Part shown: positions 10,686 through 62,256 of the stretch, piece after piece | Layout of the letters: every line of letters begins with the position of its first letter | How positions within the stretch are numbered: position 1 is the first letter of the stretch | IMG/VR virus record: IMGVR_UViG_3300026549_000033 | Location: 1-64,000 of that record | Reading direction: 5' to 3' (one strand) | From: a virus | Lineage: Duplodnaviria > Heunggongvirae > Uroviricota > Caudoviricetes | DNA: 64,000 nt | Notes under the pieces: model-generated | Databases searched by the model: none | Seen by the model: the letters and a program-made list of their open reading frames with translations, nothing else | What the model was told of the DNA's origin: nothing | Made by a program: the position numbers and the translations under genes

Positions 10686-13166
10686 ATGCAGTTAAGTGAC
10701 AAGGTATTTTTAGAAATAAAAGTAAAAGGTTCGGATAAAGAGGGTATTGTTTCTTATGATATGCTTAAGAAATTTGAGCTAGTAGAAACAGCAGGGACCT
10801 CCCTCCCTTATATATGCTTTTCTTTTGCGACTTTTGATAAAGGTTTGGCAGACTTATTTATTGAGAATAATTTGGTTACGGTTTCAATAGGTGAGACCAG
10901 AGAGAATTCTCATTCTTTTAATTTACGGGCTATAGTTAATTCTAAAGATACAGACGCTTCTAATAATTCGTGGACTGTTTATTACGGTGGGTTTATAGGT
11001 AGTAATGAGTTCATGATGGATAAAGGTATTTGTAAAGACTACCCCGGTAACTCTTTAATGGTAGCAAAGCAGATAATTAAAGAGCGCGCAGGAGGAAATC
11101 CTACGGTAGATACAGACATTGAAAAAACTAATGAAAATCAAGTATTGTGGAGACAGCTATATACTACTTCAAATATATTTTTGGTTGATACCTTACTACA
11201 TATGGATATACAGCCGTCCTTTCCGCTCTTTGCTTTTGACAAATTTGGGACTTTTCACATCAGAGATTTTAATAAATTGAAGGAGAAAGAACCTCAATGG
11301 GTGTTCACTCCCGCCCCGGCAAACGCAGGAAATGAAATACAGTATTTAAATAATTTCAATGTACAGAGTTTTAAATCTTCTTATAACTTATATTCAGGAT
11401 ATAATAAATCTACTGAGATTTATGGAGTAGCTTCAGGTATGCCTGATTATATAGTGGACGATAATGTCCCTATTTTAGCTTCTACTAAAGAAACAGAGCA
11501 TTTTGGTTCAGGAAATCGTATCTCTCTTAACAAAATACAGAGTGATAATGTTCATCATACCTATATGGAAGCTTATGCTCATAATACAAATTGTTTAATG
11601 TCAATGTCCTCCATGTTAGGATGTTTGAGGTTGGCCGGATATTACCCAAATTTAAAACCTACAGACTTAGTATTTGTAAAAATGGACGGTAATTCTGCTT
11701 CTGACTTATCTATTGAAGGTAAATATATAATTGATACAATAGTTATTTCTCCTGAATTTCAAAATGGAATTGTTAATACCTTTATATATGTCACAAGAGA
11801 TAACAATAATAATGTAGAAAACTTCATAACTGAGAAAAAAGAAAGAATGAAGATTACTAAAAAGGTTATGAGGGCTTTAGCAAATGCTGCGTCTCAGGCA
11901 AGATTGGCCCTTTCTGCGGCAGCTCAGATATTTGACGGAACTTTCACAAGAGCTTGCATGTCCTATGTAACCGCTACCAAAGTAAATTTATTAAGAATGT
12001 TTTCAATAAGCGGGACAATGGTAGATTTTACTTCTCAGGCTTATTTTTTACAGAGTTTACTTCTCCAAGGAAATACTCTTATGAATATTCTCATGAATAT
12101 GATATTCCCAAGGTCTATAGCTTTAATGCTAAGGGATTTCTTATTAGAGAAACCGTCGAAACGAAATTTATTAAGTAAGTATATTGCAGAGAATGTCCCT
12201 TTTGAATTACAGGGGTTAGTATCAGATGTGGCAGATTCACTTATGGCTGTCCACAGCTCATTAAATTCTATAGCAGAAGATAATAATATAACAGCAAGGG
12301 AGATACCTTCAGTGTTCAAAGAAGACTCAGATTACAATGAAACAGAAAATAGGATCAATTCTATTTTTGAAGAATTTGAAAATAATACTACAGGATTAGA
12401 TATCCCATTCCCAATCATTGAATTAACTGAAGAGCAAGAACTTCTTCCGTTGGCTGATCTTAGGGATTTAATGGCTGTTGAAACTATAGCTAATTTAACT
12501 GAACTTGGGTACATGGACGGAGTAGATACTGACGAATTTAAAAATATCTTAGTTGGTAAAGAGCCAATTAACTTTGACCTTATAAATCAAATAAATGAAA
12601 ATGCAGGTAATAAATTTAATTATAGGTATTGGGGAACTTACGGACCTGCAAATGAGGCTCTTTATGCTTGGTCTGTAGAAGATAATGTTGTTTATACTAA
12701 GAGTGCTGAATTAACTATATATTCAAGACTTTATAATAACGACGCTTCTCCATATGTAGGTGTAAATTTTAAATTACAAGAAGAAAATGAAAAGTATTTT
12801 ATAACCTACACAGATATTAGCGGAGAAGTAACTGTAGCAGAAAGAAATGAAGAATTAGACGTAAATTCGGATGCACTCGTACAGTTAACTGAATATTATA
12901 TTACAAAAGGATATAAAGACCGCTACAGAACTCTCCCTTGTACTAAATTAGTAAGTGCTACAAAGAACTCACGCTTATATTTTGCTTGCCCACAAAGTGA
13001 AGAAAATTTGAGATTTTATATAAATTCAAAAAGAGTACTTCTTAAGAGCTTCTCTATTGATTTAGGATTTAGAGATTCAATGGGAGCAAAAATTTTGTAT
13101 AACGTTTACTATACAGAGACAGGCTACAATTCTAATAGTACCATGTTGGAGATAAGGCAGGGTTAA
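10686..13166 (+). CDS. Large baseplate/tail-associated structural protein, 826 aa.
   Basis: Size and position between the tape measure gene and the spike gene. No catalytic motif seen. Confidence 0.4.
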   Translation: MQLSDKVFLEIKVKGSDKEGIVSYDMLKKFELVETAGTSLPYICFSFATFDKGLADLFIENNLVTVSIGETRENSHSFNLRAIVNSKDTDASNNSWTVYYGGFIGSNEFMMDKGICKDYPGNSLMVAKQIIKERAGGNPTVDTDIEKTNENQVLWRQLYTTSNIFLVDTLLHMDIQPSFPLFAFDKFGTFHIRDFNKLKEKEPQWVFTPAPANAGNEIQYLNNFNVQSFKSSYNLYSGYNKSTEIYGVASGMPDYIVDDNVPILASTKETEHFGSGNRISLNKIQSDNVHHTYMEAYAHNTNCLMSMSSMLGCLRLAGYYPNLKPTDLVFVKMDGNSASDLSIEGKYIIDTIVISPEFQNGIVNTFIYVTRDNNNNVENFITEKKERMKITKKVMRALANAASQARLALSAAAQIFDGTFTRACMSYVTATKVNLLRMFSISGTMVDFTSQAYFLQSLLLQGNTLMNILMNMIFPRSIALMLRDFLLEKPSKRNLLSKYIAENVPFELQGLVSDVADSLMAVHSSLNSIAEDNNITAREIPSVFKEDSDYNETENRINSIFEEFENNTTGLDIPFPIIELTEEQELLPLADLRDLMAVETIANLTELGYMDGVDTDEFKNILVGKEPINFDLINQINENAGNKFNYRYWGTYGPANEALYAWSVEDNVVYTKSAELTIYSRLYNNDASPYVGVNFKLQEENEKYFITYTDISGEVTVAERNEELDVNSDALVQLTEYYITKGYKDRYRTLPCTKLVSATKNSRLYFACPQSEENLRFYINSKRVLLKSFSIDLGFRDSMGAKILYNVYYTETGYNSNSTMLEIRQG

Positions 13167-13168
13167 CT

Positions 13169-13900
13169 ATGTTAATTAAACCTTTTACACCATTACTAAA
13201 AGAACAAACAGACCCGACTACAATGTCATATATAGGGAATGTTGTGGATAACAATGATCCTAAGAAATTAGGAAGAGTTAAAGTTCAAATTTCTCCATAT
13301 GCAGACTTGAGTGTGGAGGCAATTCCTTGGGCTTCCCCCTTTTTAGCTTCTCATGGAAATAGTCAAGATTATGGAGGTATAAATATCCCTGAAATTGGAA
13401 GTCAGGTTCGTGTGACATTTCCAAGTAAGGATTTTACAGCTCCTTATTATAGTGGTGCTGAATTAAATGAAACCACAAGGACTACCTTCTTTGACGACGA
13501 TTATCCTCATACTTATGGTTACAAAGACTCTGTAGGTAATTTTGTTAAAATAAATAAAGAAAGAGGTACTGCACAAATTCAGCATTCCTCAACTACAAAT
13601 ATGCAAGTTTCCCCTGACGGTTCTATAAAAGTGGGTCTTGCAGGTGGAGCTTACTTTATATTCGATAATGAAAATAATTTTGAGTTAAATATTGGAACTC
13701 TTGACATAAGTGGAAGTGCTGACGGTTCTTTAAGTGTAGACGCGAATAACGAAATTAATATTTCTACAGGGCAAGTAAACATTTCAGGTAACGTGGCTAT
13801 AGACGGAGACCTGAACATAAAGAATGGGGTTAGCGGGAGTTTTATGGCAATGGGAAATCTTGTTATGGTCGAAAACGGGATTATTGTAGCGATATTATAA
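13169..13900 (+). CDS. Baseplate central spike protein (P2 gpV / T4 gp5 OB-domain family) with a C-terminal beta-helix-like repeat.
   Basis: LGRVKVQISPY ... IPWASPF ... PEIGSQVRVTFP matches the Phage_base_V pattern. C-terminal NISTGQVNISGNVAIDGDLNIKNG repeats. Confidence 0.65.
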   Translation: MLIKPFTPLLKEQTDPTTMSYIGNVVDNNDPKKLGRVKVQISPYADLSVEAIPWASPFLASHGNSQDYGGINIPEIGSQVRVTFPSKDFTAPYYSGAELNETTRTTFFDDDYPHTYGYKDSVGNFVKINKERGTAQIQHSSTTNMQVSPDGSIKVGLAGGAYFIFDNENNFELNIGTLDISGSADGSLSVDANNEINISTGQVNISGNVAIDGDLNIKNGVSGSFMAMGNLVMVENGIIVAIL

Positions 13901-13910
13901 GGAAGATTAA

Positions 13911-14786
13911 ATGGTAGACGAATTACCTCTAATACAAATTACAAATAGAGAATATGAAAGATCTGTTAAAGCCTCTCAACGAAGAATGAAGCAAAAGGAA
14001 AAAGAAAAGGAGAGGAATAAAGCTGCTACTAAAAAGAAATCTTCAAAAGGGGGTAGTGGCCCTCTAGCCTTTTTAAAAACTACAAATGAGTGGCTTGAAG
14101 ACGTTCCTGTAAGAATAATTGCTGCTTATGATAATTTTGTAGGTAATGGTGAGGACTTAGTTCAAAGCAAAGTTGATACTTTCTGTGTATGGTTGTCATG
14201 GAAAGTTAATATTGCTGTAGAAAGGAAAAGGCAGGCTGTTTTAAGAATACTTTATGGTCAGTATCAATCTACTGTTGCTGGAAAAGTAATGAAAATGGCT
14301 AATGCTATTAAGAGCTTTTGTTCAGACCCTTTAGGTGCTCTCGGAACTTTTGCAGGGGCAATTTTTGGTCCTGTAGCTTCTGTTTTTAAATGGATTGTGG
14401 AATTAGCTGCAGAAATTATTAAGTTAGCTGCAAATTTAGCAAAAATAATGGCAGTCCTTCCGCCAAATCCACCAAGCCCTCATATTAACTATGACAAATT
14501 TAAATTAAAAGTAAAATCTATAAGTATGGCTGAAGTTACTTCAGACCCTAATACTCTTCCACCACCTGAGGTCATGTTTCCCGAACCTCCTAAACCTTTT
14601 ACAAAAGAGACATTTAAGGAAGGATTTGAAAAAGCCACAGCTTCTTTGAAAAGCGGAAGAAAAAAGTATACATTGAGTGAAGAAGATAAAAAATCATTAG
14701 CGGGATTTGATGTAAGTTATAATATTTCTGATTATATTAAGGAAGCGTCTACCCCTGAGATTAATATAGACTCTGCTATTTCTTAA
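13911..14786 (+). CDS. Hypothetical protein, 291 aa, with a basic N-terminus and a central hydrophobic helix (possible tail or membrane-interacting protein).
   Basis: KQKEKEKERNKAATKKK N-terminal region. Hydrophobic stretch ALGTFAGAIFGPVASVFKWIVELAAEII. Confidence 0.5.
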   Translation: MVDELPLIQITNREYERSVKASQRRMKQKEKEKERNKAATKKKSSKGGSGPLAFLKTTNEWLEDVPVRIIAAYDNFVGNGEDLVQSKVDTFCVWLSWKVNIAVERKRQAVLRILYGQYQSTVAGKVMKMANAIKSFCSDPLGALGTFAGAIFGPVASVFKWIVELAAEIIKLAANLAKIMAVLPPNPPSPHINYDKFKLKVKSISMAEVTSDPNTLPPPEVMFPEPPKPFTKETFKEGFEKATASLKSGRKKYTLSEEDKKSLAGFDVSYNISDYIKEASTPEINIDSAIS

Positions 14787-25662: not shown

Positions 25663-28386
25663 ATGAGATATTTATTTGTATTAAGAGGGGCACCCGCCTC
25701 AGGTAAGAGTACATGGATTAAAGAAAATGAATTAGAACCATATACATTAAGTACAGATAGTTTAAGATTAATGTATCAATCTCCTGTAACAACTGCAGAA
25801 GGAGATAGAAAAATTTCCCAAAATAATGATAAGGAAGTTTGGAATTTACTTATGGAGCTTCTTGAAAGAAGAATGGAAAATGGTGAGTTAGTTGTTATAG
25901 ACGCTACTCATTATAAATCTTCCCTTATAAATAGATATAAAGACCTTGTATCAAAATATAGATATAGAGTTTATGTTGTAGATTTTTCTAATGTATCAGA
26001 AGAAGAATTAAAAAGAAGAAATGCTACAAGAGGATTTAGAAAAGTTCCAGATGAAGTAATTGAGAAAATGGTTGTAGCCTTAGCGGATACTAATGAAGTT
26101 AAAAAACAATATAAAATAGTATCTCCTGAAGAAGCAATTACATTAATAAATTCTCCCTTAGAGCCATTTGACGTAAATGAATATGAAAAAGTTGTAATCT
26201 TTGGGGATATACATGGTTGTTATGACCCATTAAAAGAATATTTTGATAAGAATCCATTTAATGAAAATTACAATTATATTTTCTGTGGAGATTATTTAGA
26301 TAGGGGATTACAAAATAAGGAAGTTTTGGAATTTTTAATTTCTTTAAAAGATAAAAAGAATTGTGTATTCTTAGAAGGTAATCATGAGAAATGGTTGAGA
26401 ATATATTCTCAAAAAGATTATGATATGGATTACTACGAGAATAGACCTGTTGAGTATAAAGACCCATTTGTTACTAAATTAATTGCTCAATTAAAAGACA
26501 AACAAGTTATTTTAGAGAAAAAGATAAATAAGAATAAAAATATGTCTGAGGAATTGTCTAAGCTATTAAGGGAATCTTGGGAAACAAATCCTGAGAACAG
26601 AGAAGTATTTTATAGATTTGAAAAAATAAATGTTCCTGAAAAACAAAAGGAATTACATAAAGAAATACAAGAATGTGAATACAGGTTAGAAAAACTAATT
26701 AGATTAATTACTGTGCTGCAGCATGAAGAGCACAATACGAAAGATTTTATACAAAATTGTAGAGAATGGTTTAAAGAAGAGTTCTCTACGGATTTATCTT
26801 TAGATATTACAAACATTTTAGAAAAGAATTATAATGTGGAATCTAAAAGAAAACAAAATCCAATTCGTTCTTTAGAATTTATAAAAAGAACATATCCACA
26901 AATCAAAGATATTGATAAAACAGAAATAAGAAGATTCTGCGATAGATTAGCACAAATGAGTTATTTTACATTTAATGGACATGATTATTTGGTAACTCAT
27001 GGTGGTGTACCATGTATGCCTACAATGAAAACACAAACAATAGAATTAATTAAAGGTGTAGGTAAATATGAAGACCATGATAAAATAGATAAACAATTTA
27101 ATGAAAATGAAGAAAAGAATAAAACATGGACAGTCCAAATACACGGTCATAGAAATGTAATGAGAGTTCCTGTTGTATCAAATGAGAACATGACATTCAA
27201 TTTAGAAGGTCAAGTAGAGTTTGGTGGACACTTAAGAATTGTAGAACTTGGAGATTTTCCTGAAGGACATTGGAATATTGTAGAAATTAAGAACGAGACT
27301 TATGATATTCCAGAAGTAAAAGAGGAAGAAGAAAAATCTGACATAGAACTGCTTAGAGAAATGTATGATAGTAAATGGGTACAGGTTAAAAACTTAAAAG
27401 ATAATGTAATAAGTTTTAACTTTACAAGAGACGCTTTTGAAAAAGGAAAGTGGGATACAATAACAACAAAAGCAAGAGGTTTGTTTATAGATAAAACAGA
27501 CGGGCACGTTGTAGGAAGAAGTTTTGATAAATTCTTTAACTATAGACAACATGAAACAACAGAACCTGCTTATATGAAGGAACATATTAAGTGGCCTTTA
27601 ATTGGATATAAAAAAGAAAATGGATTCTTGGGTATTGTATCTAAAGATAAAAATGGAGTACATTTCTTTACTAAATCTTCTGATGAAGGTGACTATGTAA
27701 ATTGGTTTATAGGTGTACTATGTGATAATTATGGAATAACTTATATATCCAATAGTAGATATTCAGATATTTATAACAAATTAGTTAATGAAAGAGATGA
27801 AATAGATAAGGTTAATCGTAGAACTGAATTAAATATTTTAAAAACAGAATTAACTAATAAATTATCACCATTATTAGCGGAAGGGTGTTCCTATGTATTT
27901 GAATGTATAGATAAAGATAATGACCCACATATTATAAAATATGATAGTAATAAGGTAATCTTGTTAGAAATCTTTGATAATCAACTAAAAGAAAAACACT
28001 ACAATTATGAGGATTTAAAAACAATAGGGCAGGCTTTAAATGTTCCTGTTAAAGAAAAAGCACTTGTATTTAATAACTGGGAAGAATTTGAAGAATGGAA
28101 AGATAAATTCAGACAAGGATTATCTCAATGGGATTGTAAGCATGAAGGATATGTATTTGAAGACCAAAATGGATATAGGGTTAAGTTTAAATCTTCATTC
28201 TATAATTTTTGGAAACAAATGAGAGCTTTAAAAGACGTTATGGCAGGCGGAAGAACAAACAAGAAAGTTTATAAAACTAAAGAAGAAATACAGGTTGTAA
28301 AACTCATGGAAGAATTAGGTAGAGATAGGCTTAAAGAAATGTCTATTATTGATGTAGAAGATATGTTTTATGAAAGGTATAAGTAA
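25663..28386 (+). CDS. pnkp: Trifunctional polynucleotide kinase-phosphatase-ligase (Pnkp-type RNA repair enzyme), 907 aa.
   Basis: N-terminal P-loop kinase similar to T4 Pnk (RGAPASGKSTW ... RRNATRGFRKVPDEVIEKM). Central calcineurin-type phosphoesterase (GDIHGCYD, GDYLDRG, GNHEKW). C-terminal domain with a lysine-nucleotidyltransferase-like KENG motif (YKKENGFLG). Confidence 0.7.
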   Translation: MRYLFVLRGAPASGKSTWIKENELEPYTLSTDSLRLMYQSPVTTAEGDRKISQNNDKEVWNLLMELLERRMENGELVVIDATHYKSSLINRYKDLVSKYRYRVYVVDFSNVSEEELKRRNATRGFRKVPDEVIEKMVVALADTNEVKKQYKIVSPEEAITLINSPLEPFDVNEYEKVVIFGDIHGCYDPLKEYFDKNPFNENYNYIFCGDYLDRGLQNKEVLEFLISLKDKKNCVFLEGNHEKWLRIYSQKDYDMDYYENRPVEYKDPFVTKLIAQLKDKQVILEKKINKNKNMSEELSKLLRESWETNPENREVFYRFEKINVPEKQKELHKEIQECEYRLEKLIRLITVLQHEEHNTKDFIQNCREWFKEEFSTDLSLDITNILEKNYNVESKRKQNPIRSLEFIKRTYPQIKDIDKTEIRRFCDRLAQMSYFTFNGHDYLVTHGGVPCMPTMKTQTIELIKGVGKYEDHDKIDKQFNENEEKNKTWTVQIHGHRNVMRVPVVSNENMTFNLEGQVEFGGHLRIVELGDFPEGHWNIVEIKNETYDIPEVKEEEEKSDIELLREMYDSKWVQVKNLKDNVISFNFTRDAFEKGKWDTITTKARGLFIDKTDGHVVGRSFDKFFNYRQHETTEPAYMKEHIKWPLIGYKKENGFLGIVSKDKNGVHFFTKSSDEGDYVNWFIGVLCDNYGITYISNSRYSDIYNKLVNERDEIDKVNRRTELNILKTELTNKLSPLLAEGCSYVFECIDKDNDPHIIKYDSNKVILLEIFDNQLKEKHYNYEDLKTIGQALNVPVKEKALVFNNWEEFEEWKDKFRQGLSQWDCKHEGYVFEDQNGYRVKFKSSFYNFWKQMRALKDVMAGGRTNKKVYKTKEEIQVVKLMEELGRDRLKEMSIIDVEDMFYERYK

Positions 28387-32264: not shown

Positions 32265-33056
32265 ATGGATCAGGCAAAAGAACAAGTTTTCAAAAAACCA
32301 AGTGTTCTGATTTGTGGATACGGCATAGTGGGAAAGCACCTAAAGGAAACTTTTGAATGGGCTGATATTTATGATAAGTATAAGCCTGAATTCAGCAAAG
32401 TTACTAAAGAGTATGATTTCTGCTTTATAAGTGTTCCAACCCCTATGAAGGAGAGCGGGGAAGCTGACGTTAGTCAAGTCGAAGACGTTATTAAAACAGT
32501 CAAAGCAAAGTTGTATATTATCAAGTCTACTGTTCCTCCTAATACAACAAAGGCTCTTTCTGCTTTACATAAAAAGTGTATAATTTTCAGTCCTGAGTAT
32601 CAAGGTAATACTCAGCACGCGAATATTTCTTATAATTTTGTAATATTAGGAGGAGATAGAGCTTTCACAAACAAGGTAGCTCAGCTATATCAGTTAGTGC
32701 ATACCTGTGACCTAAGAATATATAAAACGGATAGTACAACTGCTGAGTTATGTAAATACATGGAGAATTCGTTTTTAGCTTGTAAGGTTACGTTCTGTAA
32801 TGAATTCTATCGTATAGCAAAACAGCTTAAAGTAGATTATACAGAGCTGAGAGAGCTCTTTGTAGCAGACTCTCGTATAGGAAGGAGCCATACCTTTGTT
32901 TATGAAGACTACCCTTATTATGACAGCAAGTGCTTTAACAAAGATTTACCGGCTATAGTATTTGAAATGAATAAAAATGGGTACGACGCTTCTTTCGTAA
33001 AAGCAATCATAAGTACAAATGATAAATTTAAAATGGAGGAAACTAATGAAGGATAA
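32265..33056 (+). CDS. Truncated UDP-glucose/GDP-mannose dehydrogenase-family protein lacking the C-terminal UDP-binding domain, 263 aa.
   Basis: ICGYGIVGK Rossmann motif, [41 protein letters not shown], and [11 protein letters not shown] where the catalytic Cys is expected. Start coupled to the upstream kinase (taaATG). Confidence 0.55.
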
Positions 33057-34305
33057 ACAAGTAGAAGGATACATACTAGAAGAACTAATAAGACAACAAA
33101 ATACAATAGAGCTTATAGCTTCTGAGAATATTGTAAGCAAAGATGTACTAGAGGCAGCAGGTTCTATATTTACAAATAAATACGCAGAAGGTAAGCCCTT
33201 TAAGAGGTACTATAATGGGTGCCACGTCGTAGATTTTATGGAACAGACAGCTTGTGATAGATTTAGAGAGTTGTTTAATACAGACTATCATGTAAATGTT
33301 CAGCCTCACTCAGGAGCTCAGGCAAATATGGCTGTATTTGAGGCATTACTTAATTACGGAGATACTGTTTTAAGTATGGATTTATCTAATGGAGGACACT
33401 TAAGTCATGGTTCTCCTGTTAATTATTCAGGTAAGCATTTTAATGTAGTACAATATGGTATTAATGAAAACGGTGAAATAAACTATGAGGAAGTTTTACA
33501 AATAGCTGTATTAAAAAATCCAAAACTTATTATTTGTGGTGCTTCTAATTATTCAAAAATAATTGATTTTAAAGAATTCGCTAAAATTAGAAATGAGCTT
33601 AATAATTTATATCCAAAGGACGAGCATTACCTCCTTGCTGATATAGCCCATATTGCAGGACTTGTAGCAGGTGGTGTTCACCCGTCTCCATTCCCTTGGG
33701 CAGACGTGGTAACAACAACTACACATAAATCTTTGAGGGGACCTCGTGGCGGTGTAATTGCTTGCAGACCTGATTTTGCTAAGAAAATAGATTCTGCTGT
33801 ATTCCCCGGTATCCAAGGCGGTCCTTTAGAGCACATAATAGCAGCAAAAGCTGTTTGCTTTTATGAAGCCTTACAACCTGAGTTTAAAGAATACGCCGAA
33901 CAAATAATAAAGAATGCAAATACACTCTGCGGAGTTCTTAATTACAGAGGATTTAAAATTGTAGGAGGTATGACCGAAAATCACCTTATGACAGTGGATT
34001 TAAGAAGGAGCTATATGTGCGAAGAGCTCACAGGAAAGGACGCTGCTAACCTTTTAGATAAATATGGAATTACTGTAAATAAAAACACAGTTCCGAATGA
34101 CCCAAGAGGACCTTTTGTTACTTCAGGACTTAGAATAGGAGTTCCTGCTGTGACAACTCGTGGATTTAAAGAAGAAGATATGAAAGAAGTTGGTAATATA
34201 ATAGCAGACATTCTTCAGTATCATGATGAAAAGTGGGAAGATATAAGGTTAGCAGCAAAAGGTAGAGCTCTTGAATTATGTAAAAAATATCCAATATATA
34301 AATAA
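33046..34305 (+). CDS. glyA: Serine hydroxymethyltransferase.
   Basis: [32 protein letters not shown] (PLP-lysine motif). ATG at 33046 with a ggagg RBS. The tracked ORF starts 27 nt upstream. Confidence 0.85.
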
Positions 34306-34699: not shown

Positions 34700-34728
34700 T
34701 TGACAGTTTACAAAAAGTAATATATAAT
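34700..34728 (+). promoter_or_regulatory. Promoter TTGACA-N17-TATAAT.
   Basis: ttgaca at 34700-34705, a 17-nt spacer, tataat at 34723-34728. Confidence 0.65.
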
Positions 34729-34773
34729 AAGAATATAATGTTGGCAACAACAATAAAGAGAGAGAAAAAGTTA

Positions 34774-36453
34774 ATGAAGAAAGAATTATCACAAGAAGCT
34801 ATAGGGCTTCTAAAGTACCTTATGAAAAATAAGGATACTGAGGATTTTAGTGGTTGCTTCGGAGCGAGTACTATTTGTCATAGAAAAGGAAGAGTTAAAG
34901 TATCATATATTCAACCTTTATTAAATGAACTTTTAAGAGCTAAAGCTATTACTCTTTCAAAAGGGTTTTTAAGAGCTCCTAAGTATATCTTAAAGACAGA
35001 TGTATCTTCTAAAATTATAGAAGAGCACGAAGAAGAGGGTACAATTTATACAGAAGAGTATCGTGAGGCTCTTAATGACGAAATTAAAAATTACAAAAAA
35101 TTTGTAATTACTACTGTAGTTATGGGGAAAGAAGTAAATAAAGAGTTTGCAGATTCTTTAAGAAATTATGCTAAAAGGAATAATGCTCTCCTGATAGCTC
35201 TCCCGTGTGAAGACGTTGTTAGTAGAGGAAAGAAGGCTCAGAAAACTTTAGAAATAAGCCCTGAATTAAGTGACTTTAGAGTAGTGTTTAAAGATACTTA
35301 TATAAATAGGAATTTATGTCTTTGCGCTATTAAAGTTTCTGCGAAACAAATAAATCCTTTAACAGGTCTTGATAGACTAACTGTTCAAAGGCAAGCTTCA
35401 ATCATTGTGGCTTCCCCAAAGGTATTTCTGAAGTATGTACCGAATATGCACTATGACATTCCTCCTGCATTAATGACTACAGGAGCTGTAACAGTAAATA
35501 ATTATGATACAGATAGATATATGTCTAAAAGAACTTCAACATTAGCTGAGGGAGACCATACTTATGGAGCTGTAATTGTAGAAGTAGAGAATGATAGTAT
35601 TTTTCATTTTAGGCATGTTCAAGCGTCTCCGTATAATTCGATAACCGACATGGGAGTTGACTACTTACCTGACGGGTCAGCTAACGCTATGAATGATACA
35701 GTTATGATAATGGGAGATTCTCATACAGGGTATCACGACAGAGAGCTGCACGAAGCAGTTATGAACGCAGCTTTAAAAACAGGAGTAGATTCTGTGTTTT
35801 TACATGACATTTTCAATGCTACTTCTGTAACTCATCATGATAAAGGTAAAGGAATTACTAGAGCAAGAAAGGCTAAAGAAAACAAACTGAACTTAGAGTT
35901 AGAACTTGCAGCCTTAAGAAATTATTTAAATATTATTAGGTTACAAGGGATGGATATATTTATAGTTCCTTCTAATCATGATACTATGCTCCTTAGGTGG
36001 CTTGAAAGTGGCGGGTACATTGACGACCCTCAGAATTATGAGTTAGGTGTTAAACTTGCAGCTGCAGCAGTTAAAGGATATGACCCTCTTCAGTACGCCA
36101 TAGAAGAAGAATTCGGTTATAAAGAAGAAAAAGTTCATTGGTTAAAAGAAGACGAAAGCTGTAAAGTCTACGACGTTGAGTGCAGTATGCACGGATCAGC
36201 GGGGGCTAATGGTTCTCGTGGTAATTTACAAATCTTTGAGAGAGGATTGGGAAATTGCGTCACAGCTCACACGCATTCTGCAGCTATAATAAGAGACGCT
36301 TTTTGTGTAGGTACTGTGGGTGTAATGGATCAAGGTTATAATAAAGGACTATCAAGTTGGACTCGTACATGCTGTTTAATTTATAAAAATGGAACAAAGC
36401 AGCTTATAAACTTTATTCCTGATAGCAAAGGTCTTTATAAGTACACTTTGTAG
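34774..36453 (+). CDS. Two-domain protein: an unknown N-terminal domain of about 300 aa plus a C-terminal calcineurin-like metallophosphoesterase.
   Basis: GDSHTGYHD, LHDIFN, VPSNHD, SMHGSAG and TAHTHSA match phosphoesterase motifs I to VI. Start taken at the second ATG (34774), which has an RBS, rather than 34738, which abuts the -10 element. Confidence 0.55.
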   Translation: MKKELSQEAIGLLKYLMKNKDTEDFSGCFGASTICHRKGRVKVSYIQPLLNELLRAKAITLSKGFLRAPKYILKTDVSSKIIEEHEEEGTIYTEEYREALNDEIKNYKKFVITTVVMGKEVNKEFADSLRNYAKRNNALLIALPCEDVVSRGKKAQKTLEISPELSDFRVVFKDTYINRNLCLCAIKVSAKQINPLTGLDRLTVQRQASIIVASPKVFLKYVPNMHYDIPPALMTTGAVTVNNYDTDRYMSKRTSTLAEGDHTYGAVIVEVENDSIFHFRHVQASPYNSITDMGVDYLPDGSANAMNDTVMIMGDSHTGYHDRELHEAVMNAALKTGVDSVFLHDIFNATSVTHHDKGKGITRARKAKENKLNLELELAALRNYLNIIRLQGMDIFIVPSNHDTMLLRWLESGGYIDDPQNYELGVKLAAAAVKGYDPLQYAIEEEFGYKEEKVHWLKEDESCKVYDVECSMHGSAGANGSRGNLQIFERGLGNCVTAHTHSAAIIRDAFCVGTVGVMDQGYNKGLSSWTRTCCLIYKNGTKQLINFIPDSKGLYKYTL

Positions 36454-36493
36454 ATGATTATATTTCTCCTTAGTTTTGTTTCCCTCCTGCAAA

Positions 36494-36523
36494 ACACCCT
36501 ACTTTAAAGATAAAGTAGGGTGT
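36494..36523. terminator. Bidirectional terminator-like hairpin between convergent genes (acaccctacttt-aaagat-aaagtagggtgt).
   Basis: 12-bp perfect stem. Weak flanking T/A runs. Confidence 0.5.
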
Positions 36524-36549
36524 TTGCCTGTTAAATTGGAGCTAACAGT

Positions 36550-38115
36550 TTAGGAATGTACTTTCTCTTTTCTCTGAAAGAGAGAAGTTATAGAGCTGAA
36601 GAACGACTTCTTGGAGATTGGGTTAGAAACTTCTTTGCGCTCTGATAGGGTAGTTACTGTTTTCGTATTAACTTTTGAAGGAACCTTAACTACTCTTTGA
36701 ATTTTCTTAGGAGATTTTTTGCTAATCGGGGATTCCATGTATTCCTGAAAAACTTCTTTTAAGTCATTCATAGAGTACCCTACATATGCCCTTTGATTAA
36801 TAATAAGGGGGATAATAGGTAAATCTTTGATTGCGTTTTCCGCTTTTGTCATTGATGTAGCTCGTTTACCGCTTAACTTCCTTCTGTAGAATTGTTTAAA
36901 AGTTACATAAAGGTTATTATCCACAGTGGTTTTAAATTTAGGTAATGGGCTTTCTGATAGTTGGTATTTTAACGCAGTGGCCCCTGGTTGTCCTTTTTTG
37001 TAATCCCATCCTACAACTTTTAATTTTTTAGCTTTTCTAAGGTCTTTTATTATACCTTTTACATAAGACTTGTTAGCCTTTATATATTGAGCCATTTGAG
37101 AAAGAGTATATGGTGTTCTTAAATTTTGTTGCAAAATATTAAGAATTTCTTTTTTCATTTCTTCACGACCTCTGTACAAAGGAGTGTGTGATACTTTCTC
37201 TTCTTCAAATTTCATAGTTGTTTGTAAAGGTTGTTTGTTCATGATTTTTTCCATTACGGAGACAGGGTACCCTGAGCAAATTCCCCTTGTGGAATGGAAA
37301 AGTACAGAAGGTACTTTATTATCTCTTAAAGAGGCTGTTAAAACGTCCTTAGCCCTGATTACAGAACCGTACTTATCTACGTTCTCTTTTAAGAAAGAAG
37401 CAATAGTGTTATACCCGTCTTTTTTGGAGTATGTTTTTACTTCTTTCAAGTCACTCTCGGTAACTTGATACAGAAGAGTATGATTTCCTGTTGGATTTGG
37501 GATATAATCCACGATTTTAACTAACCCTAATGTTCTCAAAGAAAGTAGACTTGTCCTAACTGACCCTATTTTGACATTTGTAAACTTACTTATTTCTTCA
37601 GAACCAATTGGTCTGCTCATATTCTGCGCCAAATAGGATAGGATTTTTGTGCAATTTGTGTCTTCAGCTTGGTCCTCTTTAGATTTTACACTTTTCTTAG
37701 CAGGGGTAGAAGCTATATAAGTTTCAAAATCATACAGTTCGTCGTGAGAACGGTGGCTGTTGAAAGATTCAACAAGTGCCTTAATTTCATTTTTTGCACT
37801 GTCTCTTTGGGCATTAACCCACTTTTGGTACATTTTACCATTGTACATAGTAGGTCTAAGGTCGCAATTGCAAGAATAGCATCTTGGGTATAGCCCGTGA
37901 GGTCCATTAGTAATAGTTAGTTCTTCCCCGCATTTGATACATTTTGTTTGAAGAGGCTGACCCTGCAAATAAAATTCAGCTTCTGTAAAATTTTCCCCTA
38001 AAACAAAGTTGCACTTTTCATTTGCACATCTGAAATAGGAATTTTTTGTTGTCGCGTTTGTCACTTTAATAATTCTGTCACCGCACAGCGGGCATTTCGT
38101 TGGTCTTTTTTTCAT
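36550..38115 (-). CDS. DNA-binding protein with N-terminal topoisomerase-type zinc ribbons and repeated winged-helix-like segments, 521 aa (putative regulator).
   Basis: CPLCGDRII ... FRCANEKCNF and CIKCGEELT ... CYSCNC zinc ribbons. Several wHTH-like segments (KIGSVRTSLLSLRTLGLVKIV). Confidence 0.5.
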   Translation of the reverse strand: MKKRPTKCPLCGDRIIKVTNATTKNSYFRCANEKCNFVLGENFTEAEFYLQGQPLQTKCIKCGEELTITNGPHGLYPRCYSCNCDLRPTMYNGKMYQKWVNAQRDSAKNEIKALVESFNSHRSHDELYDFETYIASTPAKKSVKSKEDQAEDTNCTKILSYLAQNMSRPIGSEEISKFTNVKIGSVRTSLLSLRTLGLVKIVDYIPNPTGNHTLLYQVTESDLKEVKTYSKKDGYNTIASFLKENVDKYGSVIRAKDVLTASLRDNKVPSVLFHSTRGICSGYPVSVMEKIMNKQPLQTTMKFEEEKVSHTPLYRGREEMKKEILNILQQNLRTPYTLSQMAQYIKANKSYVKGIIKDLRKAKKLKVVGWDYKKGQPGATALKYQLSESPLPKFKTTVDNNLYVTFKQFYRRKLSGKRATSMTKAENAIKDLPIIPLIINQRAYVGYSMNDLKEVFQEYMESPISKKSPKKIQRVVKVPSKVNTKTVTTLSERKEVSNPISKKSFFSSITSLFQRKEKVHS

Positions 38116-38277: not shown

Positions 38278-38763
38278 TTAATATTTTATTTTTTCTATTT
38301 TAAAGGGATTTCTTAATATTAACTTATACTTGAATAAAGCTTTAATTAAGGCTTTAAAGCAAGACTCTTTTTGTTCTTCTTTGGAAGCTAATGACACAGG
38401 CATATTTCCGTTAATTATATTTTCAGAAAATATTTCTGTAAGGGGCATTTTTATGGCATGGCATATTACTAAAAGACTTTCAATTCGGGGAAGTTTCTTT
38501 CCTGTTTCCATGTCTGAAATTACTGCAATAGATACATTTGTTTTACTATAAAGCTTTCTCAGGGACATTCCGCTTCTTTCCCTGTAAACTTTAAAGATTT
38601 CTCCTATTTGTTTTGTTAAGTTTTTATAAGCTTGATTCCTGCGTGGGCTTTTTTTAACTTTCTCTTCTGACTTCACTCTTTCCCTCTTTAAAAATTGAGG
38701 TTCTGTGATTTCTTCTGTCCACGGTATACTGCTATAAGCCATTCTATACTTCTCTCCTTGCAT
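38278..38763 (-). CDS. XRE-family helix-turn-helix transcriptional regulator, 161 aa.
   Basis: SLRKLYSKTNVSIAVISDMETGKKLPRIESLLVICHAIKMPLTEIF resembles an HTH_3 domain. Confidence 0.6.
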   Translation of the reverse strand: MQGEKYRMAYSSIPWTEEITEPQFLKRERVKSEEKVKKSPRRNQAYKNLTKQIGEIFKVYRERSGMSLRKLYSKTNVSIAVISDMETGKKLPRIESLLVICHAIKMPLTEIFSENIINGNMPVSLASKEEQKESCFKALIKALFKYKLILRNPFKIEKIKY

Positions 38764-39261: not shown

Positions 39262-39468
39262 TTGAAAGATGGAGAGAGAAGAATAACAATAACCTGCTAT
39301 GACGACGAGGGCTATGATTTAGTGACTCATTATCCTTTGTACGAGATCATAGAAACTACTAAGGAAACAGGTTTATGCTTTTGCACATTTTCTGACAACA
39401 GAAGAGTTTATGTAGAAAAGACTAAAGCAGGCTATACAATAAAAGCATGGAGAGAGGAAAGAAAATAA
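39262..39468 (+). CDS. Hypothetical protein, 68 aa (TTG start).
   Basis: ORF with a taaggagag RBS. Confidence 0.4.
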   Translation: MKDGERRITITCYDDEGYDLVTHYPLYEIIETTKETGLCFCTFSDNRRVYVEKTKAGYTIKAWREERK

Positions 39469-40064
39469 TGACAAGAAAAGTAATTGCTTTTTGTGGTTTT
39501 GAGCAATCAGGTAAAAACTACAGTTGTAAAAGATTAATGACAACAATGGGGTTTATTAAAACGTCATTCGCTAATACTCTCAGAGACGTGGCGTTCCATA
39601 CTTTAGGAATTCCTTTTGACGAGGGCATGCTTAAATATGAAGAACTTAAGAAAACTCCTATGTACAACGATTTAACATTTCGTAATATTTTAGAAAATTT
39701 AGGTTCGGCAATTCGCAAGTATGACGAAGACTTTTGGGCTAAAGGAGTTCTTAAGTTTATTCAAAGTACTCCAAAAAATGTATGTATTGACGATTTAAGA
39801 TATCCTAACGAATTTAAAGTTGTTAAGAAATATTGCGAAGATAATGGCATAGAGTTTAAGCTTATTTTTTGTGATTATCACAGCGAAGGTTATCGTGATG
39901 ATAATCCTCATGAGTCTGCACAGCTCGCTAAATTTTTAAAAGGTAGAGGATATAAAGACCAAGAAGAAGTAGATGGCTTTGATATTGCAGAGTATGAGCT
40001 ATATCTGTACCAAGAAAAGAATAATTGTATTGAGAGTTTAAATTTATCAGTAGAAGTTAAATAA
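39468..40064 (+). CDS. Deoxynucleoside monophosphate kinase (T4 gp1-like).
   Basis: Short N-terminus then a CGFEQSGKNY P-loop resembling the T4 dNMP kinase SGVKRSGKDT motif. Size about 198 aa. Confidence 0.55.
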   Translation: MTRKVIAFCGFEQSGKNYSCKRLMTTMGFIKTSFANTLRDVAFHTLGIPFDEGMLKYEELKKTPMYNDLTFRNILENLGSAIRKYDEDFWAKGVLKFIQSTPKNVCIDDLRYPNEFKVVKKYCEDNGIEFKLIFCDYHSEGYRDDNPHESAQLAKFLKGRGYKDQEEVDGFDIAEYELYLYQEKNNCIESLNLSVEVK

Positions 40065-40075
40065 GGAGAGATTGA

Positions 40076-40285
40076 ATGAAAGACATAATTGCAACACTTG
40101 TAACTTTTGCAGTTTTGTTTGGAGTTTGCACAGGAATTACCTGCATATGTGAAAACTACAGGTGTTCAGAAGTAGGTAAAACATTAAACTATAAAACAGA
40201 ATGGCATTATTGGACAGGTTGTGTAGTTACAAAACCTGACGGAAATAAAGTATTATTAAAACAAATGAGAGATACGGAGAAATAA
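40076..40285 (+). CDS. Small membrane or Cys-rich protein, 69 aa.
   Basis: N-terminal hydrophobic helix. CTGITCICENYRC. Confidence 0.4.
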   Translation: MKDIIATLVTFAVLFGVCTGITCICENYRCSEVGKTLNYKTEWHYWTGCVVTKPDGNKVLLKQMRDTEK

Positions 40286-40286
40286 A

Positions 40287-40826
40287 ATGAATAGAAAAGA
40301 TAATTATATAGGTACACATTTAGTGATGGATATAACTTCTTATAATAGAGAAGCTTTAAGGGACGAGGGTAAGGTAAGCTCATATTTATCAGATCTTATC
40401 AGATTAGCAGATATGACTTGTTTAGTAGCACCGCAGACTTTTAAGTTCCCTTTTGATAATGAGTATAAGAAGTTCTTGGAAAAGTTAAGGGAAGAAGGAA
40501 CAACTTCTCCTTTAATTGAAGAAAAGTTAGCTATGCTTGATTATAATGAAACTGAAGGTTCGGGAATTACAGGAATCACTGTACTTTGTGAAAGTCATGC
40601 TGCAGTGCATACATTTCCTGAAAAAGACGACCCATTCATGTCAGTCTGCCTGTACTCTTGCAAGTCATTTGACGCAGACAAAATTATAGAATATACTAAT
40701 GAGTACTGGGAAGTTAAGGATAACCACATAGTAGTTATGCAAAGACACGTAGGACTTCCTCAGCAAATTGAACAAAAGGAATTACATCTTAAAAAGAACA
40801 GCAAAGTAATAGAATTGGTAAGATAA
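40287..40826 (+). CDS. S-adenosylmethionine decarboxylase proenzyme (pyruvoyl-dependent, SpeD/SpeH-like).
   Basis: TVLCESHAAVHTFPEKDDPFMSVCLYSC matches the ESHxxxHTWPE ... C motif around the self-cleavage Ser. Confidence 0.6.
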   Translation: MNRKDNYIGTHLVMDITSYNREALRDEGKVSSYLSDLIRLADMTCLVAPQTFKFPFDNEYKKFLEKLREEGTTSPLIEEKLAMLDYNETEGSGITGITVLCESHAAVHTFPEKDDPFMSVCLYSCKSFDADKIIEYTNEYWEVKDNHIVVMQRHVGLPQQIEQKELHLKKNSKVIELVR

Positions 40827-41416
40827 TGAGTAAAGAAGTTTGGATATGGAGTGACCCACATTTCGGTCATGAAAATTGTTACACGAAATTTAAAAATTAT
40901 GATGGGACTCCCATGCGTCCTTGGAACAACATGCAAGAAGCTGAAGAATATATGATTCAAGAGTATAATAAACTTGTTCATGAGGGAGATACGTGCTATT
41001 GGTTAGGTGATATTTGTGGTATTCAAACTTACGCAGAGAAAATAATGCCAAGATTTAATAAGTCACGAAGAATTTTAGTATTAGGTAATCACGACGCAAA
41101 GCTAGGGGCAAAATACTGGTTAAAATGGTTTAATAATATTCGTGGAGACTTTAATAGAGAAAATCATATTTTTAGCCACTTCCCTGTTTGCTCAGGTTCT
41201 AAAGGTAGGTTCAAAAGAAATGTACATGGACATACCCATAGTAATTTTATTACTATAAATAACGAAGGTAAAATCAAAGACATGTGGTACAGGAATGTAT
41301 CTGTTGAAGCTATAAAATTTCGCCCTATTAATTTTTCTGAAATTCTAGAAGAAACAGAGAGATTTATCAATAAAGGACTTATAGTTATACCTGAAAAAGG
41401 TGACTCAATAGTTTAG
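40826..41416 (+). CDS. Calcineurin-like metallophosphoesterase, 196 aa.
   Basis: WSDPHFGH, WLGDICG, LGNHDAK, HGHTHS. Confidence 0.65.
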   Translation: MSKEVWIWSDPHFGHENCYTKFKNYDGTPMRPWNNMQEAEEYMIQEYNKLVHEGDTCYWLGDICGIQTYAEKIMPRFNKSRRILVLGNHDAKLGAKYWLKWFNNIRGDFNRENHIFSHFPVCSGSKGRFKRNVHGHTHSNFITINNEGKIKDMWYRNVSVEAIKFRPINFSEILEETERFINKGLIVIPEKGDSIV

Positions 41417-41440: not shown

Positions 41441-42361
41441 ATGAATAAATTTAAAAAAAGTGGAGTATATTGCATAAAGAACTTAAAAAATGGTAAGGTA
41501 TATGTAGGAAGCTCAAAGAATTTAGAGCACCGAAGAACTGAGCATTTTAATTCTCTGTTAAAAGGAAACCATCATTGTTCTCATCTACAGAAATCTTATA
41601 ATAAGTATGGATTAAAGTACTTTATATTTTGTGTAATAGAATATGTAGAAGGTAAAAATAAGTTAGAACAACAGGAATTAAGATGGTTTCATTATTATAA
41701 TGTAGGTAATCATAGCAAGTGTTATAACACATGCTTTTATGTAGGTTCACCAAGAGGAATAAGGCATTCTGAGGAAACCAAGAGAAAGTTGAGTGCTGCT
41801 CGAAAAGGTAAAAAATTTACAGAGGAGCATAAAAGACATTTAAGTGAAAGTAATAAAGGACAAAAAAGGACAGAAGAGCAAAGAAAACATCTAAGAGAAG
41901 CAATTTTAAAAAGAGGATTTACTGATGCTCAAAGGTGTGCTTTGAAGAAACGAAATGACACTTATAAAAAAGGGTACAATCCTAACGCCAAAAAAGTAAT
42001 TTGCGTCGAAACAATGGAAGTTTTTGAAACATTAAATGAGGCGTTAGAGTTTAGTAAGGGTAAAGATCGGGCTGCTTTAAGCCGTAGCTGTAAGAATAGA
42101 ATCCCTTATAGAGGAAAGCACTACCTATTCTTAAAAGATTTTCGTAAATTGACTCACATAGAACTGGAAAAACTTTTGTTAGTAAAATCTAAGTGGAGTA
42201 TTCATGTCCATACTCATATTAAGTGCATTGAGGATGAAAAAGAGTTTAGAAGCATAAGTGATGCTTCTAAATATTACCATGTAAGTCGGGACACAATTAG
42301 TAAATACTTAAAGTTAAAAAAGACAATCCCGAAACAAAACTTAACTTTTATAAAATTATAA
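41441..42361 (+). mobile_element. Free-standing GIY-YIG homing endonuclease with NUMOD3 repeats.
   Basis: GVYCIKNLKNGKVYVGSSKNLEHRRTEH (GIY-YIG motif). Three repeats of xHSEETKRKLS / HKRHLSESNKG / QRKHLREA (NUMOD3-like). C-terminal DNA-binding region. Confidence 0.75.
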
Positions 42362-49445: not shown

Positions 49446-51071
<1,626 letters not shown>

Positions 51072-59048: not shown

Positions 59049-60165
59049 ATTTTCTATATCGGCTGAACAAAAAGCCATGCTAAGTAAAGCTTTAAAGAAA
59101 GCTGAACCTACTCAATTTATTGAAACAGGGGACGTTGGCTTAGACTTAGCATTAAGTGACGGAAAAGGTTTACCTATGGGTTCTTCTACATTATTCTGGG
59201 CTAAACCGGGTTGTGGAAAAACCACTATTGTAACAGACGCTTGTAAAAGACTAATACAGGCTGCTAAAAATCGTAATGAAAAATTTCAAGTACTATATTT
59301 AGCAGTAGAAGACTCAAGGTCTCTTATGAGTGCTTTAGGCATGGACGAATACATTGACAGCGGTGACTTCATCTATTATGCTCAAGGGTTTAAATGGAGG
59401 CACATAGAAACCTTTTATCAGGCTGTTTTAAATGGCCACGATGGTTATGAGAATGTTAAATTAATTGTAATAGATAGTGTTAACAACGTACTATCAGAGC
59501 AACAATCAGAAAAATCCATTGCTGACGGCGATTACGGTACAAAAGCTCGTGAACGCTATGCTTTTTATCAGAAGTTCCTTCCTTTGTGCAAAGAAGCCAA
59601 GATTAGCTCATTCTTTATTGCACAAGTAAGACATAACCAAGCTGCTCAGACAAAGTATGATCCGTCAGATAAAGCAGCTGTAGGCGACGGAGACTTGCAT
59701 AACGTTGATATTATCTTGAAATGTACAGCTTTATCTTCAGGAATTGACGCTAGCAAAATTGAAGAAGAAACTATCTTTGGTAAAGACAAAGTAGCTTCTA
59801 AATGTATATTTAAAATGGATTCTAAAGCTACTTATTGTAAAAATAGGTATACAAGAGGTAACACAGTAGAACTTTTATTCGAAAAAGGTAAATGTGTATG
59901 GAATTATTATGCCGTAAAAAAGTTACTTATAGGTAATAACTTAATAAAAGATTCGGCCGGGTGGTACTCTTTTGACCCTGAGCTTTGTGCAACTTTTGGC
60001 ATTCCTACTAATAAAATGAGAAATGCTGAAGTTAACAGAACAGTTCAAGACCATATTGGAGAACTGATAGAGCTACTTAAACAAATGGGTAAATACAAAG
60101 TAGGGTTAAAAGAAACAGAAGTTGAAGCTGACGACGAATCTGATATTGAGGAAGAAGAGGAATAG
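59029..60165 (+). CDS. RecA/UvsX-like recombinase-family ATPase with an acidic C-terminus.
   Basis: AKPGCGKTT Walker A, LIVIDSVNNV, C-terminal DDESDIEEEEE. ATG at 59029. Confidence 0.5.
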   Translation: MATTKNKFSISAEQKAMLSKALKKAEPTQFIETGDVGLDLALSDGKGLPMGSSTLFWAKPGCGKTTIVTDACKRLIQAAKNRNEKFQVLYLAVEDSRSLMSALGMDEYIDSGDFIYYAQGFKWRHIETFYQAVLNGHDGYENVKLIVIDSVNNVLSEQQSEKSIADGDYGTKARERYAFYQKFLPLCKEAKISSFFIAQVRHNQAAQTKYDPSDKAAVGDGDLHNVDIILKCTALSSGIDASKIEEETIFGKDKVASKCIFKMDSKATYCKNRYTRGNTVELLFEKGKCVWNYYAVKKLLIGNNLIKDSAGWYSFDPELCATFGIPTNKMRNAEVNRTVQDHIGELIELLKQMGKYKVGLKETEVEADDESDIEEEEE

Positions 60166-60169
60166 ACTA

Positions 60170-61276
60170 ATGGGTAATGAGCTGAAGTTATCTTTAGAAA
60201 ATTTTCAAAGTATATCTCATGGGGAGTTAATCTTTCATGCAGGGACCAATGTTATTATAGGGCAATCAAATTCGGGTAAAACAGCCACTTTTAGAGCCCT
60301 TAAAGCGTGCCTAAGCAATCCAATTGGCTCACAACGCTTTATCAAAAAGGGAACTAACAAAGCTTCGGTTGCCTTAGAATACAACGGGAACCAAATTATA
60401 TGGAAGAGAACTCCCAAGGAAAGCTCTTATACTATAAATGGGGAAGACTTTCTAAAGACGGGAAAGTCAAATGCTTTCAAGATAGTTGAAGACACAGGAT
60501 TTGTCCTTGACGATAATGAAAATATAATGAACATTGAAGAAGAACTTCAGCTTCCTTTCCCTTTCGGTATATCCAAATCTGAATTATTTAAGCTTTATGA
60601 AAATGTTTTTTGTGTATCAGATTCAGCGGTAATTCTTAAAGCCGCAAAAGAAAAAGAAGAAGATACTAAAGGACAAATTTCCATCATAGAAAATGAAATA
60701 GTTAAAAATAAGAATAAGCTATCAGAAGTTATTAGCTTTAAAAATGAAGTTAATATTAAGTTTCTTGAAGAAAAAAGAGACTACTATAAGGAAAGCTTAA
60801 AGCGAATAGCATTCCTACAGGACGGCTTGAGCACAATTCATAAAGCTTCAAGAATTCAAGGGTTTGAAGTTCAAGAGTACTCTTTTATAGATAAATTGTC
60901 AGACTTTAATGAGCTTCGTCTGTTAAAGCACGAACTCTTCAGATTAAAGAAACTTCATGCTCTTGGGAAAAAGCTTAAGGAATTACCATCACCTAAAGAG
61001 ATAGCCTTATCTTCTTATTATGACTTAAAGAAATTTAAAAAAGATTGCGAAAAGTTAGTTTACTTTAAGGATTTCAAAGTTCCTGAAGTATCCTTCACAC
61101 AGAAATTACAAACTTATAAGGAACTGCAAGAGTACTCCAACGCTTTAAAGCACTTAAAAGAACAAATTAAGAATAAAAAGGCAAAATTAGAAAGTGCTGA
61201 GGAGCTTGTAAAAGAAAAAGAAGAGAAACTAAAAGAATTTAAGGTTTGTCCTTTGTGTCACAAACCACTTGATTAA
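60170..61276 (+). CDS. Rad50/SbcC-like ATPase, N-terminal lobe plus coiled coil, ending at the CxxC zinc hook.
   Basis: VIIGQSNSGKT (Walker A), long heptad region, ...VCPLCHKPLD*. Confidence 0.6.
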   Translation: MGNELKLSLENFQSISHGELIFHAGTNVIIGQSNSGKTATFRALKACLSNPIGSQRFIKKGTNKASVALEYNGNQIIWKRTPKESSYTINGEDFLKTGKSNAFKIVEDTGFVLDDNENIMNIEEELQLPFPFGISKSELFKLYENVFCVSDSAVILKAAKEKEEDTKGQISIIENEIVKNKNKLSEVISFKNEVNIKFLEEKRDYYKESLKRIAFLQDGLSTIHKASRIQGFEVQEYSFIDKLSDFNELRLLKHELFRLKKLHALGKKLKELPSPKEIALSSYYDLKKFKKDCEKLVYFKDFKVPEVSFTQKLQTYKELQEYSNALKHLKEQIKNKKAKLESAEELVKEKEEKLKEFKVCPLCHKPLD

Positions 61277-61289
61277 AGGAGAAAGAGAG

Positions 61290-61574: not shown

Positions 61575-61577
61575 ATT

Positions 61578-62204: not shown

Positions 62205-62229
62205 CAAGATTAGTTATCCATTATATAAT
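62201..62229 (+). promoter_or_regulatory. Promoter TTGACA-N17-TATAAT.
   Basis: ttgaca at 62201-62206, a 17-nt spacer, tataat at 62224-62229. Confidence 0.6.
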
Positions 62230-62256
62230 TAAGTAAGAGAGAAATGAGAGAGAAAA

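Follow-up and report, generated by a model that had tools for sequence, protein, structure and literature searches.

An A1-like metallophosphoesterase of an uncultured large phage: a divergent member of the phage T5 A1 family and a putative host-DNA nuclease

Which function does a tailed phage assign to a metallophosphoesterase gene that is flanked by its own consensus promoter and a strong hairpin? We examined this question for the gene at 34774-36453 in a stretch of 64,000 nucleotides, positions 1 to 64,000 of the IMG/VR virus record IMGVR_UViG_3300026549_000033 (Duplodnaviria; Heunggongvirae; Uroviricota; Caudoviricetes), hereafter called the window. The initial annotation had described an orphan protein of 571 residues with an unknown N-terminal domain and a C-terminal metallophosphoesterase. 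We found that the gene is a divergent member of a known, biochemically unsolved phage family and not an unknown enzyme. Sequence comparison leaves hardly any doubt that its product belongs to the phage T5 A1 family. Genetics has identified A1 since the 1960s as the driver of the very fast destruction of the host chromosome by T5 and of the two-step DNA entry of this phage.

Residue numbers refer to the 559-residue protein unless the 571-residue open reading frame (ORF) is stated. The features of the locus are as follows (aa, amino acids).

34700..34728, plus strand: perfect sigma-70-type promoter TTGACA-N17-TATAAT, 12/12 matches
34738..36453, plus strand: mechanical ORF, 571 aa
34757..34773, plus strand: purine-rich ribosome-binding region AAAGAGAGAGAAAAAG, with a GAGAG-type motif common before other window genes
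34774..36453, plus strand: A1-family coding sequence, 559 aa, likely true extent; start by relatives, family by the PHROG 1745 and T5 A1 matches
34774..35043, plus strand: predicted N-terminal winged helix-turn-helix domain, aa 1 to ~90, lineage-specific
35050..35697, plus strand: predicted middle domain, aa ~93-308; second metallophosphoesterase fold, in which no metal-binding motif is recognisable
35698..36450, plus strand: C-terminal catalytic binuclear metallophosphoesterase domain
36489..36527, either strand: hairpin between convergent genes, probable bidirectional terminator by folding energy and positional conservation

Membership of the T5 A1 family and domain map

The family assignment was supported by several searches. 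First, aa 76-560 of the 571-aa ORF matched PHROG 1745, "DNA transfer protein", in a phage-protein library (E 1.7e-94), and the match spanned profile positions 47-535 of 542. The same library returned a weak match of the C-terminal part to a generic metallophosphoesterase PHROG. In addition, BLASTP against T5 A1 (YP_006832.1, from NC_005859) aligned about 445 residues at 29% identity (E 2e-48). This alignment was collinear, pairing aa 115-559 of the ORF with T5 A1 91-549, and all five metallophosphoesterase motifs aligned. Finally, tblastn against cultured phages returned 1133 records with about 28% identity to aa 115-559 of the ORF, and many of them carry the label A1 protein, A1-like or DNA transfer protein. 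Among these records are phages of Vibrio, Flavobacterium, Caulobacter and Rhizobium, and one jumbo phage of Ochrobactrum. Neither Pfam nor NCBIfam had a usable match for the A1-like protein, a PDB sequence search with it returned nothing, and a scan of genome contigs yielded no relative. A literature match to "A1-like" (PMC12548924) was discarded as irrelevant, since the term there names a retron type.

The initial annotation had seen no recognisable motif in the N-terminal half, which holds for Pfam but not for comparison with the A1 family. Because the T5 A1 alignment starts at about residue 115 of the ORF, most of this half belongs to the conserved A1 core, and the lineage-specific part is the first ~100 aa only. 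When the N-terminal 305 aa alone were used to query 1.84 billion cluster representatives (E up to 0.001), 981 matches were obtained, nearly all of them proteins of 500-760 aa with about 250 aa following the matched stretch. As in the A1 family, the family middle domain is present directly N-terminal of the catalytic domain.

T5 A1 (T5.004) and the protein described here are similar in length (556 vs 559 aa), are collinear from the middle domain to the C-terminus with all five motifs in common, and are both encoded by phage genes under host-type promoters. In contrast, the first ~100 aa show no sequence relationship, and a winged-helix fold is predicted at this place in our protein. The genomes differ as well: the present one is that of an uncultured phage of ~200 kb and 34% G+C outside the Demerecviridae, no A2 or dmp partner genes were detected near the gene, and the gene lies between nucleotide-metabolism and replication blocks, not in a known terminal repeat. 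The top match among cultured phages was p412 of Ochrobactrum phage vB_OspM_OC (QIG66054.1, metallophosphatase domain-containing protein; 40% identity over 470 aa, E 4e-112). This phage is also large (228 kb), but its protein, of 608 aa in all, carries a different, longer extension at the N-terminus.

The domain architecture was derived from an AlphaFold2 model built with 64 relatives (mean predicted local distance difference test score, 82.7; predicted template modeling score, 0.76). According to the model, the N-terminal region that had been called unknown resolves into a winged helix followed by a degenerate metallophosphoesterase fold, and the active metallophosphoesterase comes last. The N-terminus matches MarR-type winged helices. 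The names listed with the model for its domain anatomy are MJ0936 and Vps29, and LpxH and the DNA polymerase B-subunits. Full-length superposition of predicted structures gave a TM-score (template modeling score) of 0.78 with the Ochrobactrum phage protein and of 0.73 with a protein of Pseudomonas phage pf16. To see in the N-terminal half of A1 a second, degenerate metallophosphoesterase fold, which here follows a winged helix, would go somewhat past the literature that we searched; predicted structures are the sole basis of this view.

The family-wide alignment comprised 131 full-length relatives, all representatives of 50%-identity clusters. The five motifs named in the initial annotation (GDSHTG, LHDIF, PSNHD, HGSAG and AHTHS) all occur in the translated sequence and align with those of T5 A1; their cores lie at GDSH 314-317, HD 344-345, NH 401-402, H473 and HTH 499-501. 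The eight motif residues of the catalytic domain, D315, H317, D345, N401, H402, H473, H499 and H501, are the seven metal ligands and the motif III His, and each is conserved in 97-100% of the relatives. The middle domain shows no His/Asp motif pattern in this alignment. Its conserved residues are T113, N178, K191, K216, G237, T240, Y244, R253, D261-H262, E270 and R280, and among close relatives it is the best-conserved portion of the protein. Strand positions, rather than a structural alignment, suggest that TTxV stands in place of motif I and TGAxT in place of motif V. Across the aligned sequences, the N-terminal extension is 36 to 298 aa long.

A comparison of the middle and C-terminal domain profiles by hhalign gave no significant internal repeat (probability 1%), and the sole stretch aligned was the helix and strand ahead of motif II, which are topologically equivalent. 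The idea of a tandem duplication therefore draws on the fold and not on the sequence. Inactive metallophosphoesterase folds are also represented by Vps29 and the eukaryotic DNA polymerase B-subunits. These have no sequence relationship to the A1-like protein, which, unlike them, combines the predicted inactive fold and an active one in tandem within one chain.

The promoter, the start codon and the hairpin

The perfect TTGACA-N17-TATAAT promoter, the single gene and the 12-bp-stem hairpin had been proposed to form a unit, and all three parts were confirmed. The window contains seven perfect matches to this promoter against 0.04 expected from dinucleotide-preserving shuffles, and all are on the plus strand, so the match at 34700 is not a chance one. 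The seven positions in the 64 kb are 6048, 14789, 29192, 31450, 34700, 38800 and 62201 (plus strand). TTGACA-N17-TATAAT is a genuine signal of this phage genome and is not unique to the A1-like gene; the phage seems to rely heavily on the host primary sigma factor. The orthologous genes on four related contigs (L005, L006, L007 and L008) have a perfect consensus promoter at the same upstream position. In L008, the ortholog of which has about 64% protein identity, both hexamers are retained and the spacer has diverged.

The 571-aa ORF exists as annotated, but the true start is most likely the ATG at 34774, which is M13 of the ORF and gives a product of 559 aa. Three observations led us to this start. 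First, close metagenome relatives are nearly all 552-561 aa long and begin with MKKxLSQEA, which corresponds to M13. In addition, the ATG at 34774 is preceded by AAAGAGAGAGAAAAAG, a purine-rich motif like that before many window genes, whereas the ATG at 34738 is only 9 nt past the -10 box and has no ribosome-binding site. Finally, the L005 locus has an in-frame TAA after the upstream ATG.

The hairpin at 36489-36527 has an uninterrupted stem of 12 bp with 5 flanking pairs. On the plus strand, its folding free energy is -27.3 kcal/mol (z -4.6), and 0 of 200 shuffles folded as well; across the two strands the values are -27 to -29 kcal/mol (z -4.6 and -4.8), and no shuffle equalled either strand. 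A simple terminator scan missed it because the plus strand lacks a proper T-run. At the same position in L005, the stem sequence differs yet still pairs, and the flanks are conserved; in L008, a T-run comes after a canonical, GC-rich terminator hairpin. The hairpin is a probable bidirectional transcription terminator. Since the positions of promoter and hairpin are kept in related contigs, the promoter-gene-hairpin unit is a conserved feature and not a product of chance.

Candidate function and its alternatives

In the T5 record (NC_005859), A1 is annotated for host DNA degradation and for the shut-off of host and pre-early gene expression, and A2 is annotated as the joint partner of A1 in DNA transfer. 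Genetics and ectopic expression have demonstrated that T5 A1 is required for the degradation of chromosomal DNA in vivo and suffices for it on its own, an effect known for T5 only (bioRxiv 10.64898/2026.04.02.716235). The same preprint presents A1 as a hallmark of Demerecviridae and predicts it to be a metallo-phosphatase bearing structural features of nucleases that act in double-strand-break repair and proofreading. A reported A1-A2 heterodimer, membrane association and no demonstrated nuclease activity were summarised in an earlier preprint (10.1101/866236).

Given the T5 genetics and the nuclease-type fold neighbours, we infer a DNase function for the A1-like protein. With a probability of roughly 0.6, it is an A1-type nuclease that degrades host DNA and is transcribed by the host polymerase in an uncultured ~200-kb low-G+C phage. 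The host RNA polymerase would transcribe the gene from the gene's own consensus promoter. The C-terminal two-metal site, probably with Mn2+, would then cut phosphodiester bonds of the host chromosomal DNA, and host shut-down would result from this cutting, as with A1 in T5. The winged-helix domain probably binds DNA, and together with the middle pseudo-enzyme domain it may hold or position the DNA. The initial annotation had listed DNA or RNA end-processing among the candidate functions. Action on DNA is indeed nearest to the T5 A1 genetics, but the process suggested by them is bulk degradation of the host chromosome and not end-processing. The homologs form a conserved hallmark of T5-like phages, but one for host takeover and not, as the initial annotation had considered, for core replication.

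Several points weigh against this assignment. The identity to T5 A1 is just 29%, and neither the phage nor its presumed host is related to T5 or E. coli. In vitro nuclease activity of A1 proteins was still undemonstrated at the April 2026 preprint, and its authors allow that A1 may instead activate a host nuclease (bioRxiv 10.64898/2026.04.02.716235). Perfect promoters identical to that of the A1-like gene also precede genes near the tail module, so we rejected the promoter as proof of early expression. Neither A2 nor dmp of T5 had a detectable homolog in the window; a tblastn search with all T5 first-step-transfer proteins found A1 alone, although the window covers 64 of ~200 kb and A2 is small and fast-evolving. 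No genome termini are visible in the window or in the related loci, and a location of the gene in a first-entering terminal region is conjectural. Finally, the phage's own DNA would have to escape degradation.

The alternative that fares best, although we consider it doubtful, is that the protein acts on the phage's own DNA, either in a T5-like two-step delivery or as a repair, recombination or replication nuclease of the Mre11/SbcD or PolD DP1 kind. With regard to delivery, no A2 homolog was found in the window, and to our knowledge two-step injection is restricted to T5-like phages. With regard to repair and replication, the phage carries a separate SbcC/SbcD-like pair (60122-63445), and the identity of the A1-like protein to Mre11/SbcD and PolD DP1 is just 12-17%. 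The domain order had been described as the reverse of Mre11/SbcD. The catalytic domain is indeed C-terminal, but the N-terminal half consists of the predicted winged helix and metallophosphoesterase fold and not of a capping domain; the chain ends about 58 aa past motif V. No Rad50- or SbcC-like gene adjoins the A1-like gene, the neighbours of which encode a Cys-rich 125-aa protein and a winged-helix protein. In DP1 and the DNA polymerase B-subunits, an OB fold precedes the phosphoesterase, whereas here a second, degenerate metallophosphoesterase fold is predicted at this place.

A bolder extension of the nuclease assignment, which we regard as improbable, is that the A1 family is a single-chain pseudo-dimer, in which a dead and an active metallophosphoesterase fold imitate the DNA-clamping Mre11/SbcD homodimer. 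The fused winged helix would replace A2 in the ~200-kb lineage, and this self-contained A1 machine would occur widely among large uncultured phages remote from the T5 family, serving host-DNA destruction and possibly staged genome delivery. The hhalign comparison of the winged helix with T5 A2 and with the T5 A1 N-terminus gave no signal.

We consider it very improbable that the protein is a phosphodiesterase that destroys the signalling nucleotides of host immunity (cyclic di- and trinucleotides, cyclic ADP-ribose isomers or cyclic mononucleotides). Nothing in support of this earlier proposal was found past superfamily membership; defence and anti-defence families were not searched. The nearest characterised relative, T5 A1, has a chromosome-degradation phenotype, and a nucleic-acid polymer is the kind of substrate that would suit both the winged helix fused here and the basic residues conserved in the middle domain (K191, K216, R253 and R280). 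The phage anti-CBASS and anti-Pycsar enzymes described by Hobbs et al. in 2022 reportedly have a 2H fold (Acb1) and a metallo-beta-lactamase fold (Apyc1), and the A1-like protein has neither the 2H-phosphoesterase nor the metallo-beta-lactamase fold.

The least probable alternative is a protein with no nuclease activity, either a lambda-phosphatase/PPP-type protein phosphatase or a regulator of the host RNA polymerase. Nothing was found in support of a phosphatase role, protein phosphatase matches score below nuclease-type matches, no PPP-family Pfam model matches, and in T5, A1 alone suffices for DNA loss. The rest of the probability is reserved for functions outside the host-DNA nuclease assignment and these three alternatives.

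Genomic setting and implications

An identical A1-like protein occurs on metagenome contigs with the same neighbours, and relatives sharing 61-89% identity come from contigs that reach 197-217 kb, with gene order conserved. The uncultured contigs carrying relatives range from 24 to 207 kb. In the conserved order, a Pnkp-type kinase/phosphatase/RNA ligase, serine hydroxymethyltransferase and a 125-aa Cys-rich protein precede the A1-like gene. It is followed by convergent minus-strand DNA-binding genes, an S-adenosylmethionine (AdoMet)-decarboxylase-like gene, a small phosphoesterase, DnaB and NrdD. Further features of the window are as follows.

3772-4347, minus strand: putative ORF, 191 aa, filling a gap between plus-strand genes; no family match
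25663-28386: Pnkp-type kinase/phosphatase/RNA-ligase fusion, 907 aa
34319-34696, plus strand: Cys-rich protein, 125 aa, several CxxC pairs, directly upstream of the A1-like gene
36550..38115, minus strand: convergent neighbour, 521 aa, N-terminal Ogr/Delta-like zinc ribbon and two winged-helix-like regions
38278-38763, minus strand: HTH_3 (Cro/C1-type) regulator, after the 521-aa gene
40826-41416: 196-aa phosphoesterase, PHROG 547
41441-42361, plus strand: GIY-YIG/NUMOD3 homing endonuclease gene
49461-51071, plus strand: full-length GroEL-type chaperonin, PHROG 5725, E 6e-157
62549-63445: SbcD/Mre11-like protein, close downstream of an SbcC-like AAA_23 ATPase at 60122-61276

The window derives from a large virulent-type phage of ~34% G+C without a close cultured relative. 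A megablast search of the region against cultured phages returned nothing, and the phage DNA polymerase shares at best about 28% identity with those of cultured phages, over about 30% of its length. The genes of the window encode tail tube and tape-measure proteins, the Pnkp-RNA ligase, phosphoribosyl pyrophosphate synthetase, serine hydroxymethyltransferase, deoxynucleoside monophosphate (dNMP) kinases, and NrdD with its activase. They also encode GroEL, a family A DNA polymerase, DNA ligase, a RecA-like ATPase and the separate SbcC/SbcD-like pair. Four proteins of the metallophosphoesterase superfamily are encoded in the window, the A1-like protein (34774-36453) among them.

The Cys-rich protein keeps its position in relatives, and no family match was found for it. 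The 521-aa convergent protein gave weak Rrf2, HrcA and EarA matches in its winged-helix-like regions. The minus-strand genes beside the A1-like gene had been taken for the only ones in the window, but the ORF at 3772-4347, putative as it is, lies on the same strand. In relatives, proteins of 525, 698 and 271 aa stand in place of the minus-strand block. This block may be a variable regulatory island where two plus-strand transcription blocks meet. On L008, a 179-kb contig, an IS607-type pair (12655-14491) of a serine recombinase with a MerR/resolvase domain and TnpB (OrfB_IS605) lies downstream of the A1-like gene, with one 188-aa minus-strand gene between them, at the site of the minus-strand regulators of the window. 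The homing endonuclease gene was also seen in the related loci L001 and L002 and is absent at the same position in L005 and L006, which fits a mobile insertion.

Genes of nucleotide and one-carbon metabolism surround the A1-like gene (32265-34305 and 39447-40826) and encode a UDP-glucose-dehydrogenase-like protein, serine hydroxymethyltransferase, dNMP kinases and an AdoMet-decarboxylase-like protein; L008 also has an intein-containing ThyX (105-1847). This cluster might point to a modified phage DNA and, possibly, to self-protection from the nuclease.

We suggest the annotation "A1-like metallophosphoesterase, putative host-DNA nuclease" in place of hypothetical protein. A1 is among the oldest unsolved phage proteins, and its biochemistry is still unproven. 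A divergent ortholog may purify more easily than T5 A1, which has been described as membrane-associated (10.1101/866236). The domain map of the previously undescribed N-terminal half guides the mutation of residues and the choice of domains for DNA-binding tests. Finally, the window shows that the A1 family extends well beyond T5-like phages, a spread that goes somewhat past what the searched literature holds.

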